From positions 485-64,484 of the forward strand of contig JAZLAQ010000007.1 of NCBI GenBank assembly GCA_045613285.1: a DNA stretch of 64,000 nt, given 5' to 3'. Of the stretch, positions 2,034-39,143 are shown one piece after another (positions within the stretch are counted from its first letter, which is position 1; each line of letters begins with the position of its first letter). Origin of the DNA: Alphaproteobacteria bacterium (GTDB lineage Bacteria > Pseudomonadota > Alphaproteobacteria > CAAHEQ01 > UBA3637). Below the pieces are notes generated by a model. That model made no database searches, was not told where the DNA came from, and worked only from the letters and a program-made list of their open reading frames with translations. Made by a program: the position numbers and the translations under genes.

Positions 2034-4184
2034 TCAACCCATCAGGCGATTCCACCAACCACCCCGTTTTTCCGGTTTTGTTTCTTTTTCAATAATGGCC
2101 GGTACAGGATTTTCTTCAATCTTAGCCGGTACTTTATCGGTATGAACAGCCGGCAAATTTTCGGTCGGTTGGGATGTTTTCCCCCGTCCTTGTTTTTTTC
2201 TTTTACGATCCCGGTATTTACTCTTGCCGTTTTTTTTGTTTGTTTCTGTTTGTTCAGTTTCAGTCAAGGATGCTTGTTCCACAATCGTGAAGTTTTCCGG
2301 TGTGGATTCGGGTTTCACTTCATCCTTGCTCTTGTTTTTATCGGCTTCGTGCTGATCATTTAATGCAGCCTGTTCCGCAGCCAATTGCTTTTGTTTCCGT
2401 TTCCAATCCTTTTTATGATGATGACGGTTATGTTCCCGATTGGTCGTTGTTTCACTTTCGGTAGATTCTTCACGTGTCGCCTTGATAATCGCATCAATGG
2501 ATTGAGCTTTATCACTGTTTTTATCAGGGCGGAATGTGGCCGGCGGTACTTGAATCGGTGTTCTGTCCCCATTGTCACGCAAACGTTCCAGTTTGAAACC
2601 GGATGCTTTTAATAAAGTGCTATCGGATTGAACCTGTAAGCGAACTTGATATCTATCCTCAATAGAGTTTAATGTTGACCGTTTAATGTTTAAAACATAT
2701 TCAGCAACAGTCAACGGTAAAGACATTACCAAAGTTGTCTTGGTATTGCGGGCAGCGGCTTCTTCCAATATATGTAAAGCATGCATAGCACTTGATTCAA
2801 CAGAACGAACCATGCCTTTTCCCCCACAGTGTGGGCATACCCGATAACTGCTTTCCAAGAAACTGGAATGCAATCTTTGACGTGACATTTCCATTAAACC
2901 AAACCCTGAGATTTTGCCGATTTGAATACGGGCCCGATCTTTCTTTAAAGCTTCTTTTAACCGGCGTTCAACAGCTGCATTATTGCGGGCTTCATCCATA
3001 TCAATAAAGTCAATCACAATTAAACCTGCCATGTCACGTAACCGCAATTGGCGAGCCAGTTCATCACAGGTTTCCAAATTTGTCCGTAAGGCGGTTTCTT
3101 CTATATTATGTTCCCGTGTAGCACGTCCCGAATTGACATCAACGGCAACTAAGGCTTCGGTTTGGTCAATTACTAAATAACCACCGGAACGTAACTGAAC
3201 AACATTGCTGTGAATGGATTCTAACTGTGTTTCAACCTGATATTCCTGAAATAACGGTAAGTGGCCCTTGTACAGCTTTATTTTTTTTACTTGAGATGGC
3301 ATTAAAATTTTCATAAAAGTTTTAGCACTTTTGAAAATATTTTCGCCGGCAACAATGATTTCATCCGTGTCAGGTGTAAAAACATCCCGCAAAGATCTTT
3401 TGACAATGTCACCTTCCCGATGTATTAGCTTTGGGGCAATGGATGCCAGTGTATCTTTACGAATTTGCATCCATGTTTTCATCAAATAGTCATAATCCCG
3501 TTTGATTTCAGATTTTGTCTTGCCTTGCCCTGCGGTGCGGATAATGACACTCATCCCATCAGGTATTGGCAGTTTGTCAACAATAGCCCTTAATGTTTTG
3601 CGTTCTTTGGCGTTGCTGATTTTTCGGGATACACCACCCCCCTTTGCATTATTGGGCATTAAAACGCTGTATCGGCCGGCCAAAGATAAATAGGTTGTCA
3701 GTGCTGCCCCTTTATTGCCACGTTCTTCTTTGACAACTTGAACCAACATAACCTGACCCTGACGGATCACTTCCTGAATCTTGTATCGGCGGTAAAAGTG
3801 TGAACGTGGACGGATAATTTCTTCTGTCTCAATGTCGTTTGTTTGTTCCGTATCTTCGTTTTCTTCTGTTTCCCGTTCATCTTTTTCCGCGATGGCTTCG
3901 GCTTTGATTTGTGCTTTTATGGCTTCACGATCAGCAACAGGAATCTGATAGTAATCCGGCTGAATTTCACCAAAAGCCAAAAAACCATGACGATTTCCGC
4001 CGTATTCAACAAAGGCGGCTTGTAAAGATGGTTCGACCCGAACAATTTTTGCTAAATAAATATTCCCTTTAATTTGTTTTTTTGTAGACGTGTCAACATC
4101 GAATTCTTCTAATCTCCCGTCTTCCAATACCACGACACGAGTTTCTTCGGAATGTGTCGCATCAATAAGCATTTGTTTTGACAT
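2034..4184 (-). CDS. rne: Ribonuclease E (Rne/Rng family)
   Basis: MLIDATHSEETRV, GNIYLAKIVRVEPSLQAAFV, DVNSG and IVIDFIDM motifs; C-terminal GGWWNR typical of alphaproteobacterial RNase E. Confidence 0.95.
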   Translation of the reverse strand: MSKQMLIDATHSEETRVVVLEDGRLEEFDVDTSTKKQIKGNIYLAKIVRVEPSLQAAFVEYGGNRHGFLAFGEIQPDYYQIPVADREAIKAQIKAEAIAEKDERETEENEDTEQTNDIETEEIIRPRSHFYRRYKIQEVIRQGQVMLVQVVKEERGNKGAALTTYLSLAGRYSVLMPNNAKGGGVSRKISNAKERKTLRAIVDKLPIPDGMSVIIRTAGQGKTKSEIKRDYDYLMKTWMQIRKDTLASIAPKLIHREGDIVKRSLRDVFTPDTDEIIVAGENIFKSAKTFMKILMPSQVKKIKLYKGHLPLFQEYQVETQLESIHSNVVQLRSGGYLVIDQTEALVAVDVNSGRATREHNIEETALRTNLETCDELARQLRLRDMAGLIVIDFIDMDEARNNAAVERRLKEALKKDRARIQIGKISGFGLMEMSRQRLHSSFLESSYRVCPHCGGKGMVRSVESSAMHALHILEEAAARNTKTTLVMSLPLTVAEYVLNIKRSTLNSIEDRYQVRLQVQSDSTLLKASGFKLERLRDNGDRTPIQVPPATFRPDKNSDKAQSIDAIIKATREESTESETTTNREHNRHHHKKDWKRKQKQLAAEQAALNDQHEADKNKSKDEVKPESTPENFTIVEQASLTETEQTETNKKNGKSKYRDRKRKKQGRGKTSQPTENLPAVHTDKVPAKIEENPVPAIIEKETKPEKRGGWWNRLMG

Positions 4185-4418
4185 TTATGTAATTCCTTTA
4201 ATTCTGATTTAATATTCACAGGGAAGTTGTCTCCCTGACAGCTCGATAAAAACAGAGAGACACCTTTGAAAAGAGGTATGTAAGTGAAAAAGTCTGACAT
4301 TTTAAATTCTCCGTTTTTAAAAAAATATTTGGGCAACCGCTTTTTTTGGTTGCATTTTGTATTATATCGTTATATGAATAAATAAGCAAGTTTTTTTTAA
4401 TCGACAGGTAACTTTTTT

Positions 4419-5552
4419 ATGAAATGTTTAAAGATTTTACTTTTTATACTGATGACGTGGTCATTTAGTCTGTTTGGAAATGCCGCTGAAATTAAAGATA
4501 TACGGTTGGCTGCCAATGCAGAAAATACTGTTCGATTTGTGGCAGAATTATCAAAAGAAGTTTCACCTGTTGTATCACATCTGAAAAATCCGACGCGACT
4601 GGTTATTGATTTTCCTAAAATCGATTTTTCGACTACTTTAAAAAAACCGACACCGGTATCGTTTGTGAATGCTGTTCGGACAGGAGTTCCTGAAAAAGGG
4701 GTATCCAGAATTGTGTTGGAATTACCGTCAAATGAAGTGTCTGAGAATCATTTTATCTTGAAACCACAAAGCGGTAAAGAGTGGCGGTTCGTGTTGGATT
4801 TATCCTTAAAAGGTAAGGCAAAAGTCTCTGTTGATAAAAAAACAGAAAGTGTGTCTCCCGTAAAAAAAATGCAAAAAGTTATTGTTTTGGATCCTGGTCA
4901 TGGGGGACAGGATCCTGGGGCTATTTCCAATTCCGGTTATTATGAAAAAGACATAGTTTTGAAAATGGCAAAAGAAACAAAAAAATTATTGGAACAAGAA
5001 GGTTATAAAGTCATTTTAACCCGTGATAAAGATGTTTTTATCCCCTTGCGGGGACGGATTAAAAAAGCCCATCAGTCCAAAGCAGATTTGTTTATTTCAA
5101 TTCATGCGGATAGTGCGAAAAATAAGTCAGCAAGAGGGTTGTCTGTTTACACTATTTCAGAGCGGGCTTCGGACGCAGAGGCTGCCGCTTTGGCTGAACG
5201 AGAAAATCGGGCAGATATCAGTACGGCTATTGATTTGTCCGATATAGATCCCAGTGCCGGAAACGTATTGTTGGATCTGGAAAAAACGGATACGATGAAT
5301 AAATCTTCCATCTATGCGGAAATCGTTGTAGATGAAATGAAAAAGAAAGTCCAGTTGGTTCCAAAGGCACACCGATTTGCTGGTTTTGTTGTGTTAAAAT
5401 CTCCCAGTATCCCTTCTGTTCTGTTGGAATTGGGCTACTTGTCTAATAAAACGGAAGATAAAAATCTGCAGAAAGAATCTTATCGGAAATCTTTGGCTGA
5501 ATCATTGGTAAAAGCGGTTAAAGTTTATTTTACCAAACATGATGATGAATAA
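4419..5552 (+). CDS. amiC: N-acetylmuramoyl-L-alanine amidase (AMIN + Amidase_3)
   Basis: Signal peptide, AMIN-like PTRLVIDF, VLDPGHGGQDPGA, FISIHAD, LELGYLSN; divergent from rne. Confidence 0.92.
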   Translation: MKCLKILLFILMTWSFSLFGNAAEIKDIRLAANAENTVRFVAELSKEVSPVVSHLKNPTRLVIDFPKIDFSTTLKKPTPVSFVNAVRTGVPEKGVSRIVLELPSNEVSENHFILKPQSGKEWRFVLDLSLKGKAKVSVDKKTESVSPVKKMQKVIVLDPGHGGQDPGAISNSGYYEKDIVLKMAKETKKLLEQEGYKVILTRDKDVFIPLRGRIKKAHQSKADLFISIHADSAKNKSARGLSVYTISERASDAEAAALAERENRADISTAIDLSDIDPSAGNVLLDLEKTDTMNKSSIYAEIVVDEMKKKVQLVPKAHRFAGFVVLKSPSIPSVLLELGYLSNKTEDKNLQKESYRKSLAESLVKAVKVYFTKHDDE

Positions 5553-5553
5553 A

Positions 5554-6366
5554 CTATCGGGATTTTTTATCAAACAAATTGAAGTTTAAAAAACCTTTTG
5601 GTGTTAGGGATTGAATGGTTTTTTCATTCTTTTCATTACGCCATGAAACCGGTTTGTCCCCATAGGCTTCGTAAATATCACTTTGGTAGACATCCAGAGG
5701 TGTTTTTCCTTGATTTTTAATCGAAACGTCTGCCCCTTTTTGTATCAGCAGTTTTATCATTTCCGAATCACGGATTTTAGCCATGGCATGTAAAGGTGTT
5801 TCCCGCTCACCGGATATGATAGAAATATTCGGATTAGCGCCGGCATTGAGTAGTTTTTGAATTTGTTTTTTTTGAATATCAGTAGCGTATCCGTTCCTTT
5901 TTAAAAGTGTGTAATTGTTGATAGCTTGTGCCAGTGGAGAACGTGTATTGTCTTCATCTGCATTGCCGGTCTGATAAAATCCGATGTTTGGATCAACACC
6001 GGATGTCAGGCATTTATCCAAAAGTTCCATATCGTTGTTCATAATCGCTATTTTTAATGGGGAAGGCCCTGGTAAAGGATTTGACATATAGATATGATTT
6101 TTGAAATCGGGATTTTTTAGGGCTGTATCTAAATCAACATCTTGTCGTAGAACGCGTCCACCAGATAGAGGTTTGCGAATTTGCCATTTAAGTTTATCTT
6201 GGACATTTGTTTTTTCCTGAGTCATTGATTCCAAAACAGTTTGGGAAGTATTTTCTTGTATTTGGGGTATTGGTTCAGGTTCTGATTGTACTGCTTGTGT
6301 TTGGGCTAATGTGGTACCAGTAATAACAGCGGAAGCTATGGAAGCCAGGTATGTTTTAACAGACAT
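5554..6366 (-). CDS. Ankyrin-repeat protein, possibly exported
   Basis: SPLKIAI, SPLAQAI, TPLHAMA...LLIQKGADV...GKTPLD ankyrin motifs; N-terminal signal-like segment. Confidence 0.8.
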   Translation of the reverse strand: MSVKTYLASIASAVITGTTLAQTQAVQSEPEPIPQIQENTSQTVLESMTQEKTNVQDKLKWQIRKPLSGGRVLRQDVDLDTALKNPDFKNHIYMSNPLPGPSPLKIAIMNNDMELLDKCLTSGVDPNIGFYQTGNADEDNTRSPLAQAINNYTLLKRNGYATDIQKKQIQKLLNAGANPNISIISGERETPLHAMAKIRDSEMIKLLIQKGADVSIKNQGKTPLDVYQSDIYEAYGDKPVSWRNEKNEKTIQSLTPKGFLNFNLFDKKSR

Positions 6367-6460: not shown

Positions 6461-8090
<1,630 letters not shown>

Positions 8091-8880: not shown

Positions 8881-9518
8881 TGACAGATATTCAAAACTTA
8901 TTTCAGAATAAACAATTATTGAATCAGGCATTGCAATTGTCCCGTAACGGAAAACGGGCCGGTTATGAACGATTGGAATTTTTGGGTGATCGGGTTATTG
9001 GTCTGGTAGTGTCGGAAATGTTATATCGCATTTTCCCAAAAGAACAAGAAGGAGCTTTAGCAAAACGTTTTGTTGCTCTGGTTCGGGAAGAAACTTTAGC
9101 TGATGTAGCACGACAAATCGGATTGGATGTGTTGATGAATACAAATGAAGATGAGTTAAGACATAACAATTCTGTTTTGTCGGATTTATGCGAATCGGTT
9201 ATGGCTGCACTTTATTTGGATAAGGGGTTGGATATCGTTAAAGAATTTATGGAGCCAATCTGGATGCCTTTGATACGCGCGGATATTAAAATACCGCAGG
9301 ATTCAAAATCAACTTTGCAGGAATGGGCACAAAAAAAACACAAACAATTACCGGTCTATCAGTTATTGGAACGGTCCGGTCCAGATCATCAGCCCGTGTT
9401 TACTGTTTCCGTAACTGTCGGTAAAAAAACGGTTGTCGGAACGGGAAATAATAAAAAATTGGCAGAACAGGCGGCAGCCGAAACTTTTTTGAAGGAATAC
9501 AAAAATGGATATAAATAA
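8880..9518 (+). CDS. rnc: Ribonuclease III
   Basis: ERLEFLGD signature, C-terminal dsRBD, lepB-rnc-era synteny. Confidence 0.93.
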   Translation: MTDIQNLFQNKQLLNQALQLSRNGKRAGYERLEFLGDRVIGLVVSEMLYRIFPKEQEGALAKRFVALVREETLADVARQIGLDVLMNTNEDELRHNNSVLSDLCESVMAALYLDKGLDIVKEFMEPIWMPLIRADIKIPQDSKSTLQEWAQKKHKQLPVYQLLERSGPDHQPVFTVSVTVGKKTVVGTGNNKKLAEQAAAETFLKEYKNGYK

Positions 9519-10404
9519 ACAACATTTTGCTTTTGTAGCTGTTCTGGGCGCACCAAATGCTGGTAAGTCAACGCTTGTTAATCGGTTGGTTGGGGCAAAA
9601 GTGTCTATTGTTTCGCCTAAGGTTCAGACAACTCGATCCCGTATTCGGGGGATTTTGGTCGATGAACAAACGCAACTGATTTTAGTTGATACGCCGGGGA
9701 TTTTTAAACCCAGTCGACGTTTGGATAGGGCTATGGTAGCTTCAGCATGGACGGAAGCAGAAGATTCGGATATTCGAATGTTATTGCTTGATGTTAGTAA
9801 AGGTATAGATAAAAATACAAAAAATATCATTCAAAATTTGGTAAAAAATAAACAAAAATGTATTCTGGTTTTGAATAAAATAGATTTGGTTGCCAAAGAT
9901 AAATTATTACCTTTGATTGCAGAATTAAATCAATATCCGATTTTTACGGAAACTTTTATGGTGTCGGCCGAAACAGGGGAAAATACGGAAGAATTGAAAA
10001 ATTATTTAGTGTCATTGGCTCCAAAAGGTATGTGGATGTTTCCGGACGATCAGTTGTCTGATTTACCTAATCGTTTGTTTGCTGCAGAAATTACACGAGA
10101 AAAATTGTTTATGCATTTACAACAGGAGTTACCGTATACTTTAGCTGTGGAAACGAATTCTTTTCAGGAGCAAAAAAACGGTATTCGAATTGAACAAACA
10201 ATCTATGTGGAACGTACCGGACAAAAATCAATTATATTAGGAAAAAGCGGTTCAATGATTAAAAAAATCGGATTAGCTGCACGAATGGAATTAGAACGGC
10301 TATTCGAACAAAAAATACATTTATTCCTGTTTGTTAAAGTTAAGGAGAACTGGCAGGAAGATCCCAGTCAGTATTCGGATTGGGGGTTGGATTTTAATGC
10401 CTGA
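9505..10404 (+). CDS. era: GTPase Era
   Basis: GAPNAGKS, QTTR, DTPG and NKID motifs, followed by a KH domain. Confidence 0.96.
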   Translation: MDINKQHFAFVAVLGAPNAGKSTLVNRLVGAKVSIVSPKVQTTRSRIRGILVDEQTQLILVDTPGIFKPSRRLDRAMVASAWTEAEDSDIRMLLLDVSKGIDKNTKNIIQNLVKNKQKCILVLNKIDLVAKDKLLPLIAELNQYPIFTETFMVSAETGENTEELKNYLVSLAPKGMWMFPDDQLSDLPNRLFAAEITREKLFMHLQQELPYTLAVETNSFQEQKNGIRIEQTIYVERTGQKSIILGKSGSMIKKIGLAARMELERLFEQKIHLFLFVKVKENWQEDPSQYSDWGLDFNA

Positions 10405-11080
10405 GTTTACCGAAGAAAAAGGATTAGTTCTGTCGTCTAAACGATTGGGGGAGCGATCTTGTATTTTATCGGTACTGACGGAAAAAAACGGTCGGTATTT
10501 AGGAGTCTATCAGAAACAAAAACCTCCTGAAATCGGAACACTGGTTTCTGTCCGTTGGCGGGCCAGATTGGCAGAACAAATGGGAACTTTCTATCTGGAA
10601 GAAGTTACATCTTTTAGTATTCCTTTTTTAGATGATAAAAAAAGACTGGCTTGTTTGTTATCAATCTGTCTATTATTGCACGAGTTATTACCTGAACGAC
10701 AAATTTTTTCGGATTTATATCATTCCGTTTTGGATTTTTTGAATGATTTGTCAAAGACGGATTTTTTAAAAAAATATGTTCTGTTGGAAAAAGAATTATT
10801 AGGTGAAATCGGTTTTGGTTTGGATACCTCTTGTTGTGCCGGCGGAGGGAATTCTGATGATTTGTTTTATGTATCTCCTAAAACAGGCCGGGCCGTTAGT
10901 AGGGAAAAAGGAAGACCATATCATGATAAGTTATTATTGCTACCCCGTTTTTTATGGTGTAATTCAGAAGCAACAGATATGGATATTCAATTAGGATTAA
11001 AGTTGACAGGATATTTTTTGCAAACTTTTGCCTTAAAAAAAATGCTTCCGAAAATTCGGGAGCAATTAATGGTCCTTTAA
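10397..11080 (+). CDS. recO: DNA repair protein RecO
   Basis: WRARLAEQMG, GFGLD..C, YVSPKTGRAVS; follows era. Confidence 0.9.
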   Translation: MPEFTEEKGLVLSSKRLGERSCILSVLTEKNGRYLGVYQKQKPPEIGTLVSVRWRARLAEQMGTFYLEEVTSFSIPFLDDKKRLACLLSICLLLHELLPERQIFSDLYHSVLDFLNDLSKTDFLKKYVLLEKELLGEIGFGLDTSCCAGGGNSDDLFYVSPKTGRAVSREKGRPYHDKLLLLPRFLWCNSEATDMDIQLGLKLTGYFLQTFALKKMLPKIREQLMVL

Positions 11081-11280
11081 TGGGTGTATATGAGACTAAA
11101 TATTTTATTTTCATATAGTTGTATTTTATTGATGGTTTATTTTATTAGCTCTGTCCGAATGATTTTATCAAATTAATTTTTTGTAATTTCATTTAATTTT
11201 AAAATAGAATTATTGGAAACGGTTCGATAAATTTGTAACTTTTTATTGAAAAAAAACGTGGCTTATGATATAATCTGCTT

Positions 11281-13776: not shown

Positions 13777-14961
13777 ATGTTGAAATTTATTTCTATTTTA
13801 ATCAGTTTTATTGTTGCCGGATTTTTGATGGTTCATGACACATGGATGATAACAATCACAGCCTTTGGATTCCAAGTTAAGACATCGTTGGTTACTTTAT
13901 TGGTTTGTTTGGTTCTGTTTTGTTATTTATTATGTTTGTTGAAAAAACCATTCCATTGGATAAGAGGATGTCAGACTTGGTATCAGAAAAGAAGACAAAA
14001 TCAAAAAGAAACATTCCTATTATTGGCATTACGTACTGTTTTGGATCAGAATAGCCAGATAAAAAAGCAATTACTTAAGCAAAAAAACAGTTTTTTTGAT
14101 AAAAAGTCAAATGAAAATATTGTATTAACGGCTTTGTTGGATCCTTCAACGCATACGTTTGAGCAATTGTTACATCGGGAAGGAACTGAGTTGGCCGGAA
14201 TTCGAGGTTTGTCGCAGTATGCCCAAAAAAAAGGAGATTTAACAGAAGTTAATCGGCTTTTGCAAAAAGCTATTCAAAAACATCCGGATGAAATTTGGGT
14301 TTGGGAATCTTTATGGGAAAATCAGGTTCTGTTGAATGATTGGTCAGAAGCATTGAAAACACTTGATTGGTTATTGGATAACAAATGTCTGGATAAAAAA
14401 ACATATCAAGACAGAAAATCTTTACTATTGTTGAAATTGGGACGTGTTAAGGATGCCTATAAATTGAATCCTAAAAATATTCCTATCGTTTTGGCTTATA
14501 TCAAAGAGGAACCCGCGAAAGCATTGTCTGTGATAACAAATGTTTGGGAACATGATCCTTGTTGGGCTTTGTTTTCGGATTTTGAAAAAACAATATCTGA
14601 TGAAAAAACGGCAACGCAAATGAAAAGGGTTGAAAAATTGGTCAAAAATAATCCGGAAAATAAGTTTTCTCTGATGGCTTTGGCACAAATCGCTATGAAT
14701 AATGAGTTATGGGGTGTCGCCAAAGAATACTTAACACAATATTTAAATGCATATCCGTTGACAGGACAAGTCGCCAGAATGATGGCTTTGGTTGAACGGG
14801 AAGGGTGGCATCATGAAGAAGAAGCCAAACAATGGGATGAAAAATCTTTGACGACTCAACAAGATTTATCTTGGGGATGTGATAACTGTGGGCATCTGAC
14901 GGAACAATGGGATGTTGTTTGTCCGAATTGTAATGCTTTTGGACGAATTTATCATCCTTAA
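13777..14961 (+). CDS. HemY-like TPR membrane protein
   Basis: Two N-terminal TMs, TPR-like helices, LWGVAKEYL, C-terminal WxCxxCG...W..VCPxC. Confidence 0.75.
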   Translation: MLKFISILISFIVAGFLMVHDTWMITITAFGFQVKTSLVTLLVCLVLFCYLLCLLKKPFHWIRGCQTWYQKRRQNQKETFLLLALRTVLDQNSQIKKQLLKQKNSFFDKKSNENIVLTALLDPSTHTFEQLLHREGTELAGIRGLSQYAQKKGDLTEVNRLLQKAIQKHPDEIWVWESLWENQVLLNDWSEALKTLDWLLDNKCLDKKTYQDRKSLLLLKLGRVKDAYKLNPKNIPIVLAYIKEEPAKALSVITNVWEHDPCWALFSDFEKTISDEKTATQMKRVEKLVKNNPENKFSLMALAQIAMNNELWGVAKEYLTQYLNAYPLTGQVARMMALVEREGWHHEEEAKQWDEKSLTTQQDLSWGCDNCGHLTEQWDVVCPNCNAFGRIYHP

Positions 14962-36519: not shown

Positions 36520-37215
36520 ATGCCGTATAAACAAACGATAACCGAATCCGGATGGAGTATGGTGGAAATGCTAGGTGTTCTGGCAATTATCGGGGTATTG
36601 TCTATCGGTGGGATAGCGGGCTATACCTATGCCATGAACAAAAGTAAAGCCGAAGCCTTAAACGGTTCCGCCGTTGCCAGTGGTGGTGGGGATGCCTGTA
36701 CTTTAATCGCCAGTAATTGTGCCAGTGGTGCTTTGGCGGAAGGTGAATGTGCCTGTGCCCCGGCAACAGAAGGACAAACCTGTACCGACCATACCACAAA
36801 CGAATGCGGATTGGGATATTATTGTCAGTTCGAGCCATTAGATTGTGATGATACAAAAGGTGGTAATCCCAATGGTGTTTGTACCGCCGTTGGCAGAGGT
36901 TTTAACGCTGGGGCTTATTTAAAGGGTCCCGTAATGGATTGGTGGAGTGCATACAGTTGGTGTAAAGGGAATGGCATGGAACCGGTAACGGGGAAAATAG
37001 CCGGTATACGGTTAAATAGATATTATGACAACAGGGATGGTAATGGACTCCTTTATCAATACTTTAGAGAAGGTATTGGATTTTGGACGGGACATGACAA
37101 AGGCGATTCCTGTCGCGCGTGGTACGTTTACGCTAACGCTGACGACGAGGGCGTCGACAACGTCGGTCGCTACGCCTACGACGGCTACAGCGACTGCCGC
37201 GCTTTGTGTCAGTAG
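36520..37215 (+). CDS. Type IV pilin-like, Cys-rich, C-type-lectin-like protein; putative DGR target
   Basis: Prepilin-like ESG/WSMVEMLGVLAIIGVLSIGG, Cys-rich linker, MDWWSAYSWC...FWT...AWYV...RALC CLec-like tail. Confidence 0.8.
   Translation: MPYKQTITESGWSMVEMLGVLAIIGVLSIGGIAGYTYAMNKSKAEALNGSAVASGGGDACTLIASNCASGALAEGECACAPATEGQTCTDHTTNECGLGYYCQFEPLDCDDTKGGNPNGVCTAVGRGFNAGAYLKGPVMDWWSAYSWCKGNGMEPVTGKIAGIRLNRYYDNRDGNGLLYQYFREGIGFWTGHDKGDSCRAWYVYANADDEGVDNVGRYAYDGYSDCRALCQ
37108..37215 (+). other. Putative DGR variable region (VR)
   Basis: Of the 26 codons at 37123-37200, 21 end in C and 25 end in C/T, in an otherwise AT-rich window. The peptide follows the AWxV...V....R...ALC scaffold of CLec-type DGR VRs. 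Confidence 0.7.
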
Positions 37216-37355
37216 TGCGTGTTCGGCTTTTTAAAATAATTTAATAATTGTCGGGGGTATTGCTCGGGATTATTAAAAACAAACCGGTATTGATTTCTTT
37301 GGTACCGGTTTTGTATGTGAAAAAAGGAATGTAGAACCTTATTTAAAGGGAAAAA

Positions 37356-39143
37356 TTATTCATCCCCGATTTTGAGGGCTTGGATAAAGGCGTTCTGTGG
37401 GATTTCAACCTGTCCGAATTGACGCATCCGCTTTTTACCTTCCTTCTGCTTTTCCAACAGTTTCCGTTTTCGGGTAATGTCCCCGCCGTAACATTTGGCT
37501 GTCACATCCTTGCGGAAAGCAGCAATATCTTCACGGGCAATAATCTTGCCACCGATACTGGCCTGAATGGGAATCTTGAATTGGTGTCTGGGAATTAAAT
37601 CCTTTAAGCGTTCGCAAATCTGACGACCGCGTCTTTCGGCTTGGGAACGGTGGGCTAAAAATGCCAAAGCGTCAACCTGTTCCCCATGAACCATGATGTT
37701 GACACGTACCAAATCACTGGCATTATAATCGCCCAGTTCGTAGTCAAAGCTGGCATACCCGCGGGAAATGGATTTTAATCGATCGTAAAAGTCAAAAACA
37801 ATTTCATTCAATGGCAGTTCGTAAACAGCCATTGCCCGATCCCCGACATAAGTCAAATCTTTTTGGATACCCCGTCGTTCCGTACAAAGTTGCAAAATAC
37901 CACCCAGATATTCATCCGGTGTCATAATGGTTGCCCGAACCCAAGGTTCTTCAATGCGAGCAATACGGCTGACATCCGGCATATCTGCGGGATTATGCAT
38001 TGTCATCATATCCCCGTTTGTCAGGTATACTTTATATGCTACCGACGGTGCCGTTGTGATTAAATCCAAATTAAATTCACGGGATAGGCGTTCCTGAATA
38101 ATCTCCATGTGAAGCAAGCCCAAGAAACCACACCGAAAGCCTTGCCCTAAAGCCATGGACTTGTCCGGTGTAAACTGAAAACTGGCGTCATTGAGTTGTA
38201 GTTTTGCCAAAGATTCTTTTAATAATTCGTAATCACTCATATCCACAGGGAACAGAGAACAAAACACAACGGATAAACTGGGTTTGAAGCCGGGCAGAGC
38301 CTTTTGTGTCGGTCTTTTTTCGTCCGTTATCGTATCGCCGACACGGGTTTCACCAATAGATTTGATACCGCAAATAATAAAACCGAGTTCTCCGGTCTTG
38401 ATTTCATCCGTATCTACCATTTTCGGTGTGAAATAACCACATCTATCCACTTTATAAACGGCTTTGGTGGCCATCATCTGAATGGACATACCCTTTTTTA
38501 AAACACCGTCCACAATACGGGCCAATACAACAATACCTAAATAAGGGTCGTACCAAGAATCAACCAACATTGCTTTTAACGGTGCGTCGTTGTCCCCTGT
38601 TGGTGCCGGCAATCGGTTGACAATAGTATCTAAAACCGAATCAATGCCTATTCCAGTTTTTGCAGAAATCAATGGGGCATCAGTGGTATCAATGCCGATA
38701 ACATCTTCTATCTGAGCCTTTATTCGTTCCGGTTCGGCAGCCGGTAAATCAATTTTATTAATGACGGGTAGAATTTCATGATTTGCATCCAATGCCTTGT
38801 AAACATTGGCAAGAGTTTGCGCTTCTACCCCTTGTGAAGCATCCACAACCAATAAAGAGCCTTCACAGGCCGATAATGAACGACTGACTTCGTAGCCAAA
38901 GTCAACATGCCCCGGGGTGTCAATCAGGTTTAAAATATAATCTTTGTATTTTAAACGAACGGTTTGGGCCTTTATGGTAATGCCTCGTTCTCGCTCGATA
39001 TCCATATTATCCAGCAGTTGGGCTTTCATTTCCCGTTCGGAAACAGCGCCGCATTTTTGAATCAGTCGATCTGCTAAAGTGGATTTGCCGTGGTCAATAT
39101 GGGCAACAATTGAAAAATTACGAATATGTGATAAATCTGACAT
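37356..39143 (-). CDS. lepA: Elongation factor 4 (LepA)
   Basis: [52 protein letters not shown]. Start placed at MSDLSH, not at 39470. Confidence 0.97.

Follow-up and report, generated by a model that had tools for sequence, protein, structure and literature searches.

An open reading frame (ORF) of the window, the whole 64,000-nucleotide stretch of alphaproteobacterial DNA that was analysed, ends in a tail that is supported by sequence comparison as a genuine variable region (VR) of the type written by a diversity-generating retroelement (DGR). The ORF (36520..37215, forward strand) encodes 231 amino acids, in which a prepilin-type signal is followed by a Cys-rich stalk and then by a C-type-lectin-like domain carrying the VR at its terminus. 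This VR is probably an orphan that is static at present, its DGR having since been lost or never having been imported.

Organization of the gene and its product

The gene and the DNA immediately downstream contain the following features, all on the forward strand.

36520..36660, forward: prepilin-type leader (M1-G12) and hydrophobic N-terminal helix from W13, a motif read in the sequence
36553-36555, forward: G12, after which cleavage is predicted
36568-36570, forward: Glu at +5 relative to this cleavage site
36697..36900, forward: Cys-rich stalk of residues 60-127, bearing CTDHTTNECGLGYYCQF...C...GVC; the alignment of homologues has conserved Cys, Gly and Tyr columns here
36901..37212, forward: predicted C-type-lectin-like domain, residues 128-231, with the DWWSAYSWCKGNG motif (AF2 model, VIA-align and Foldseek)
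37114..37232, forward: DGR-type VR (codon pattern and homology to VRs with a verified template repeat; the 5' limit, placed without such a repeat, is approximate)
37201..37230, forward: conserved 3' end of the VR, an IMH-like element (30-mer shared with other genes)
37240..37277, forward: imperfect hairpin 3' of the VR (DNA folding)
37279..37314, forward: second hairpin followed by a T run, terminator-like (sequence and DNA folding)

The N-terminus reads MPYKQTITESG/WSMVEMLGVLAIIGVLS, where the slash marks the prepilin-type cleavage site with Gly at -1, Glu at +5 and a hydrophobic helix. About 30 paralogous copies of this N-terminus (GRSMVEMLGVLAI...) are present in the genome, which is 1.27 Mb in size, and 24 of the 24 family genomes searched carry it in 3-68 copies each. 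The genome also encodes a prepilin peptidase (PF01478, 57.2 bits), T2SSE ATPases (PF00437, 220 bits) and a secretin (PF00263, 39.4 bits), and homologues of the window protein are named 'type II secretion system protein' in one source. The motif, the paralogues and the genes for processing and assembly agree with the prepilin-like N-terminus of the original prediction and support its assignment as a putative prepilin-type anchor. The protein may be displayed on a pilus and act as an adhesin.

The window protein resembles type IV pilins and type II secretion system (T2SS) pseudopilins of the GspG type in its G/xxxxE motif and hydrophobic helix, and in the peptidase, T2SSE ATPase and secretin encoded alongside it. 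Unlike them, it is devoid of the head of about 103 residues that its homologues have, and its match to Pfam N_methyl (E 0.16, 12 bits) falls below the cut-off of 21.2. It also has W at +1 (R in the homologues), where F or M is usual in type IV pilins and pseudopilins.

Copies of the prepilin N-terminus lie, for example, at 36550-36660 of the window and at C23:27847-27978, C29:85-228 and C27:21306-21449 elsewhere in the genome, and numerous contigs of the assembly terminate within such genes.

The closest homologue, P0002 (334 aa), is 72% identical to the window protein. Alignment places the residues missing from the latter, which form the pilin head of P0002 and of most homologues, at the junction KSKA/EAL, and a globular pilin head was not found after its N-terminal helix. 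It is because of these missing residues that the prepilin N-terminus almost abuts the Cys-rich part; the nearly direct joint noticed in the sequence is thereby confirmed by alignment with P0002. The loss takes the form of an in-frame internal deletion at window positions 36655-36665. Apart from this, a Logan contig of run X4 (depth 2.7) fuses 36727 to 37215 at a 4-nt microhomology and omits 487 nt, the whole Cys-rich and lectin part; it could represent a deletion allele or an assembly chimera.

Structure of the lectin-like domain

Searches of Pfam, NCBIfam and PDB sequences with the window protein matched no family, and Protein Atlas gave leads only below 0.9 (InvE_AD and Lcl_C). The AF2 model, built on a 29-row alignment, has a mean pLDDT of 76.5; it is confident over residues 60-231 and below 50 over residues 6-57. 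Values of 89-97 are reached over most of residues 128-231, and the stalk, to which no fold was assigned, has values of 68-90. When the model was compared with 48,161 chains by VIA-align, all 50 of the 50 matches listed were C-type-lectin-like and covered model residues 128-231, with Z of 6.3-8.9, which is middling by the tool's own note, although the list is uniform. The top match was 8oks_B (Z 8.9, rmsd 2.8, 87 residues aligned). Foldseek also placed this structure first (8oks_A, E 0.0097), followed by C-type lectins, none of them at E<=0.001. The model and both structural comparisons point to a C-type-lectin-like domain, as had been proposed from the sequence, and the assignment of this fold to the predicted structure of the VR-bearing domain is supported.

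The best structural match is the C-terminal domain of Bdellovibrio bacteriovorus Bd2740 (PDB 8oks), but its sequence is only 9-12% identical to that of the window domain. Because its Z lies within about 1 of that of many animal C-type lectin domains, the similarity shows that the fold is common to both, but not that the two proteins are specifically related.

Codon signature of the variable region

The tail had been singled out by its codons, and the 26 codons at 37123-37200 do read as quoted: 21 of them are NNC, including the final 11 in a row. Third-position C rises from 22% in codons 1-200 to 68% in codons 201-231, and the GC content of the tail is 61%, whereas the window averages 38.3% and the 1.27-Mb genome 36.9%. 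At the 22% of the preceding codons, the binomial probability of at least 21 NNC codons out of 26 is 3e-10. A scan of the genome in six frames found at least 21 NNC codons in 108 of 2,534,504 windows of 26 codons, in 12 listed places.

The VR comprises 21 variable codons, all NNC except for one NNT, so that 42 first and second positions are mutable, and every variable codon retains C at its third position (T in the single NNT codon). They are set in the fixed scaffold GCG TGG. GTT. GCT. GCT.. GAG. GTC.... CGC ... GCT TTG TGT CAG TAG. The closing GCT TTG TGT CAG TAG and the GC-rich tail behind it, TGCGTGTTCGGC (37216-37227), are both as originally described.

Most of the other NNC-rich places in the genome translate as Thr/Asn/Ser-rich runs (frame translations, with gene status not assumed). 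Windows with 21-24 NNC codons out of 26 in some frame are also found at C9:17084-17353 (reverse strand), C7:391-468 (reverse strand) and C5:326-403.

Fixed scaffold and free positions in homologues

With residues 60-231 as the query, 28 homologues were found, mainly on short metagenome contigs; the wider family, searched for in 1.84 billion proteins at E<=0.001, has 72 cluster representatives. In the lectin body, DWWSAYSWCKGNG and FWTGHD are conserved across the alignment. The last ~35 residues fit the scaffold SC.AW.V.A.S..E.V....R.....ALCQ, and the positions between are free. In eight subfamily genes, the codons GCG TGG, GTT, GCT, TCT, GAG, GTC and CGC are invariant, and those in between almost always end in C, with up to four different bases at their first two positions. 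Over 406 pairs of homologues, mean identity is 58% in the lectin body versus 29% in the tail. Even pairs with 84-89% identity in the body share just 36-58% of the tail, which is near the floor set by the scaffold residues.

The homologous tails thus do not differ equally at scaffold and third positions, a comparison chosen as a test of DGR origin. Variability is confined to positions of the template-adenine type, as judged indirectly from eight homologous VRs and the verified template of a relative described below. The pattern of scaffold and NNC codons in homologues, together with homology to VRs whose differences from their templates are at adenines only, supports the DGR-type VR that had been proposed. 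It is very improbable that the NNC run has another source, namely a choice of amino acids (Tyr, Asp, Asn and Gly), local codon bias or recombination between paralogues. The paralogue family is large and would permit gene conversion, and a cognate template was found nowhere searched. Selection on amino acids, however, does not predict third positions that stay C in columns where positions 1 and 2 take up to four bases. The variable residues are moreover those that NNC can encode, conservation reaches into non-coding DNA, and the homologous VRs with adenine-only mismatches lie beside Avd and a reverse transcriptase.

Horizontal transfer of the lectin gene was considered and rejected. Over the five comparisons covered, the DNA of the body shows 74-84% identity with copies in another genus, and lepA is 74-76% identical; this gap is too small to warrant a claim of transfer. 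In nine genomes of the same genus, the flanks on the rpmG side and the lepA side lie on different contigs, and therefore synteny does not distinguish insertion from loss.

Conserved 3' element and hairpins

The 30-mer at 37201-37230 extends 15 nt beyond the stop codon. Exactly this sequence recurs at two genes in a genome from another genus (G075:C2 and G075:C26), and it has two further copies with small changes. Conservation of the DNA ends about 15-20 nt past the stop, and the 100 nt beyond it are only about 50% alike. The segment 37198-37320 folds at -15.2 kcal/mol (z = -3.15), and 1 of 200 shuffled sequences was as stable. The imperfect hairpin reported past the stop is present at 37240-37277. 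The 30-mer, kept past the stop across genes and genera and with hairpins behind it, is a candidate IMH-type element; judging its function and telling IMH from IMH* require a template repeat.

At about 1590-1700 of locus L131 (G075:C10, about 14744-14860), a VR-like fragment, AWVVDVFSYVDAVSDYTRDGGLYPTLCQE, stands by itself, accompanied by a terminator hairpin and by the conserved 3' element. The remainder of the gene is absent there, and the fragment adjoins an apparent tRNA gene end.

DGR cassettes in related genomes

The reverse transcriptase (RT) domain RVT_1 is present in 23 of the 80 genomes of family species, among them 4 of the 9 further genomes that belong to the genus of the window. 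At 7 of the 10 RT loci fetched, there is a pair of repeats of 100-119 bp whose mismatches lie almost all on one base of one copy (11/11, 9/10, 16/16, 16/16, 23/23, 20/21 and 25/25). Adenine-biased repeat pairs were not found at the other three (L083, L084 and L088). Next to these repeat pairs are the RT (RVT_1, 65-68 bits) and an Avd-like gene, which scores 51.9 bits with PF22296 and, with NF033474, E 1e-15, short of the cut-off.

At locus L086 of genome G081, a cassette of avd, template repeat (TR) and RT adjoins a gene homologous to that of the window. The protein targeted there has 427 aa, shares the prepilin N-terminus, Cys-rich part and lectin domain of the window protein, and ends in ...YALCR. 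The TR codons AAC GTG AAC AAC AAC AAT CGC AAC AAC align with GGC GTC GAC AAC GTC GGT CGC TAC GCC of the window. Within the AAC run, the L086 VR exceeds its TR by 3 nt, and such an offset can explain the variation in VR length among homologues. In the same genus as the window, the targets of the DGRs at L081 and L082 are secreted proteins of 131-136 aa with the related tail ..AY.V.LSSGAV....R.....ALC.

Directly upstream of the L086 target, positions 3927-4580 contain a serine-recombinase-like ORF with a YCRVST motif. A 104-bp direct repeat, 96% identical, lies between target and avd (6232-6335 and 6472-6575). A different, second DGR type was seen at L087 (repeats at 9449-9567 and 11075-11193), L089 and L090, in genomes G011, G012 and G023. 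Its order is TR, RT and a 652-aa target, with 20-25 adenine-only mismatches, and the target has its VR close to the N-terminus, at about residues 56-95, ahead of a region that resembles a P-loop ATPase.

Search for a cognate retroelement

According to the original prediction, a DGR located elsewhere in the genome diversifies the gene in trans. This part was not borne out, as RT, Avd and TR were all not found in the assembly, a 35-contig draft rated 99.78% complete. PF00078 (RVT_1) gave no match at E<=1, although control genomes responded, and neither did PF22296 (bAvd). By tblastn, the best E values were 0.5 with the RTs and 0.18 with the Avds of three relatives each. The TRs of relatives found nothing in this genome by blastn, and a blastn search for a TR-like copy of the VR matched only the VR itself. 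A gapless scan that tolerates adenine differences found no TR, the best other place being identical at 41 of 126 bases. The near-copy beside RT and avd genes that had been suggested as a check was therefore sought in the genome, and none was found.

Beyond this genome, no AAC-type version of the VR scaffold was found across the 80 family genomes, self-comparison of 18 loci around subfamily homologues revealed no adenine-biased repeat pair that would be a local TR, and two specific TR patterns had 0 matches in IMG/VR. A 15-base pattern with 69 matches in IMG/VR was discarded as chance, because no more than 36 of the 95 further bases agreed, where about 24 are expected. RT was also not found in G075 (MAG SUVA01) and G074, which carry the closest homologues. 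The original prediction was to count as refuted if the genome and close relatives lacked an A-rich template and a DGR-class RT and if reads showed no A-specific polymorphism; this holds only in half, because the assembly yielded neither template nor RT, but DGRs are present in close relatives.

That a draft of 35 contigs lacks the cassette is not proof that the organism does. A working avd-TR-RT cassette on an unassembled or unbinned stretch of chromosome, on a plasmid or on a phage could act on the gene in trans and diversify it by way of the conserved 3' element, and remote targets are known for DGRs. The cassettes of relatives are often found on contigs of only 2-6 kb or at the edges of contigs; by their coordinates, 11 of 28 RT matches are within about 1.6 kb of a contig end and could readily drop out of an assembly or bin. 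Consistently, many contigs of this genome end in the repeated prepilin N-terminus. The VR itself is intact, and its terminal 30-mer is identical at genes of two genera, as expected of a recognition element kept by use. G075, G074 and G073 have intact-looking VRs yet no RT, which could mean systematic loss in assembly instead of repeated biological loss. However, this genome contains no RT, Avd or TR even in fragmentary form, and the missing AAC-type scaffold copy in the family genomes and IMG/VR also argues against a cassette overlooked by assembly. Such a cassette is rather unlikely, and the unbroken assembly of the VR and its near-identity in an independent sample, described below, also speak against it.

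Present state of the variable region

The VR sits in the middle of a 64.9-kb contig as one sequence and was assembled without a break. Other samples were compared through Logan contigs from four runs of four studies, in which uncovered parts carry no meaning; the highest share of sampled words of the stretch in a sequencing run was 0.13. In run X2, an independent gut sample, one contig of 413 nt (depth 3.56) covers 37082-37400. Within the VR, it differs from the window by 37135 A>T, 37179 C>T and 37196 G>A and by a 6-nt insertion behind 37127; of the 42 mutable first and second positions, these changes touch 2. Over the 168 nt that follow the VR, there are four substitutions and two single-base indels. 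On this single low-depth contig, divergence in the VR equals that in the flank, and thus no rewriting separates the two strains. A nearly unchanged VR in an independent sample argues against ongoing diversification, including that by a cassette missing from the assembly, and the VR appears frozen as far as one contig at depth 3.56 tells.

Five other genes of this genome with this lectin tail have 12, 6, 4, 3 and 1 NNC codons out of 27, compared with 20 of 27 here. This looks like a decay series, in which low scorers may never have been targets. One of them, at C9:41220-42416, is a second prepilin-lectin gene with 12 of 27 NNC codons and a degraded 3' element (3 mismatches in 30), and its tail is likely a decayed VR. 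In the window gene, third-position C is intact in a genome of 37% GC, which means that the last write was recent; this is equally compatible with a cassette that is still present.

Proposed mechanism

The preferred reading of the window gene as an orphan VR can be summarized in a working model. The product would be a secreted or pilus-type surface protein with a C-terminal C-type-lectin-like domain that binds a ligand. The last ~35 codons and about 17 nt past the stop would have been written by a DGR, in which reverse transcription of a template RNA rich in AAC makes errors at adenines, and the resulting cDNA takes the place of the VR. NNC codons would thereby be left at the positions that form the binding surface. 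The orphan VR would keep the last version written and would now change by ordinary mutation. The cassette may have been lost recently, or the gene may have come without it.

A bolder alternative assumes a single DGR, perhaps mobile or multicopy, that is systematically missed by metagenome-assembled genomes and serves arrays of prepilin-lectin genes in trans across several genera of these gut Alphaproteobacteria with reduced genomes via the 30-nt element. This is an unlikely conjecture. If true, the intact VRs without RT in this genome (G000) and in G075, G074 and G073 would be live remote targets and not fossils.

Relation to known DGR systems

Neither lectin-type nor remote DGR targets are new, nor are DGR-diversified adhesins on pili. 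Variable proteins with a C-type lectin fold include Mtd of Bordetella phage BPP-1, TvpA of Treponema denticola and LdtA of Legionella. The window protein is similar to these in its C-terminal VR within a CLec-type domain, in NNC codons where a template has AAC, in the conserved 3' element with a downstream hairpin, and in the avd-TR-RT cassettes of its relatives. Unlike them, its domain is compact, with about 105 residues behind a Cys-rich stalk, the protein matches no family in Pfam, NCBIfam or PDB, and no cognate TR or RT was found in the genome.

DGR-diversified tip adhesins have been described for type V pili of Bacteroides (bioRxiv 10.1101/2024.11.15.621889). These also belong to a gut bacterium and place a diversified binding domain on a pilus subunit, as proposed for the window protein. 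Type V pilins are, however, described there as of the lipoprotein type, with a signal sequence, a lipobox and cleavage at Arg, whereas the window protein has an N-terminus of the prepilin-peptidase type (type IV pilus and type II secretion class) and its host is an alphaproteobacterium with a reduced genome. Another source mentions G-type pilin DGR targets as scarce (PMC11661182). A partial literature search found no report of prepilin-type DGR targets in gut Alphaproteobacteria.

The window gene adds a small, previously unmodelled family of lectin-type DGR targets on a prepilin-type anchor, hosted by gut Alphaproteobacteria of 1-2 Mb. This suggests that these bacteria with small genomes depend on variable surface lectins to attach, a role that has been proposed for other small-genome symbionts (PMC10221324). 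The gene is also a concrete case of VRs that have outlived, or have been parted from, their retroelement. DGR surveys begin from the RT and would therefore miss VR genes without one, such as ORF 36520-37215.
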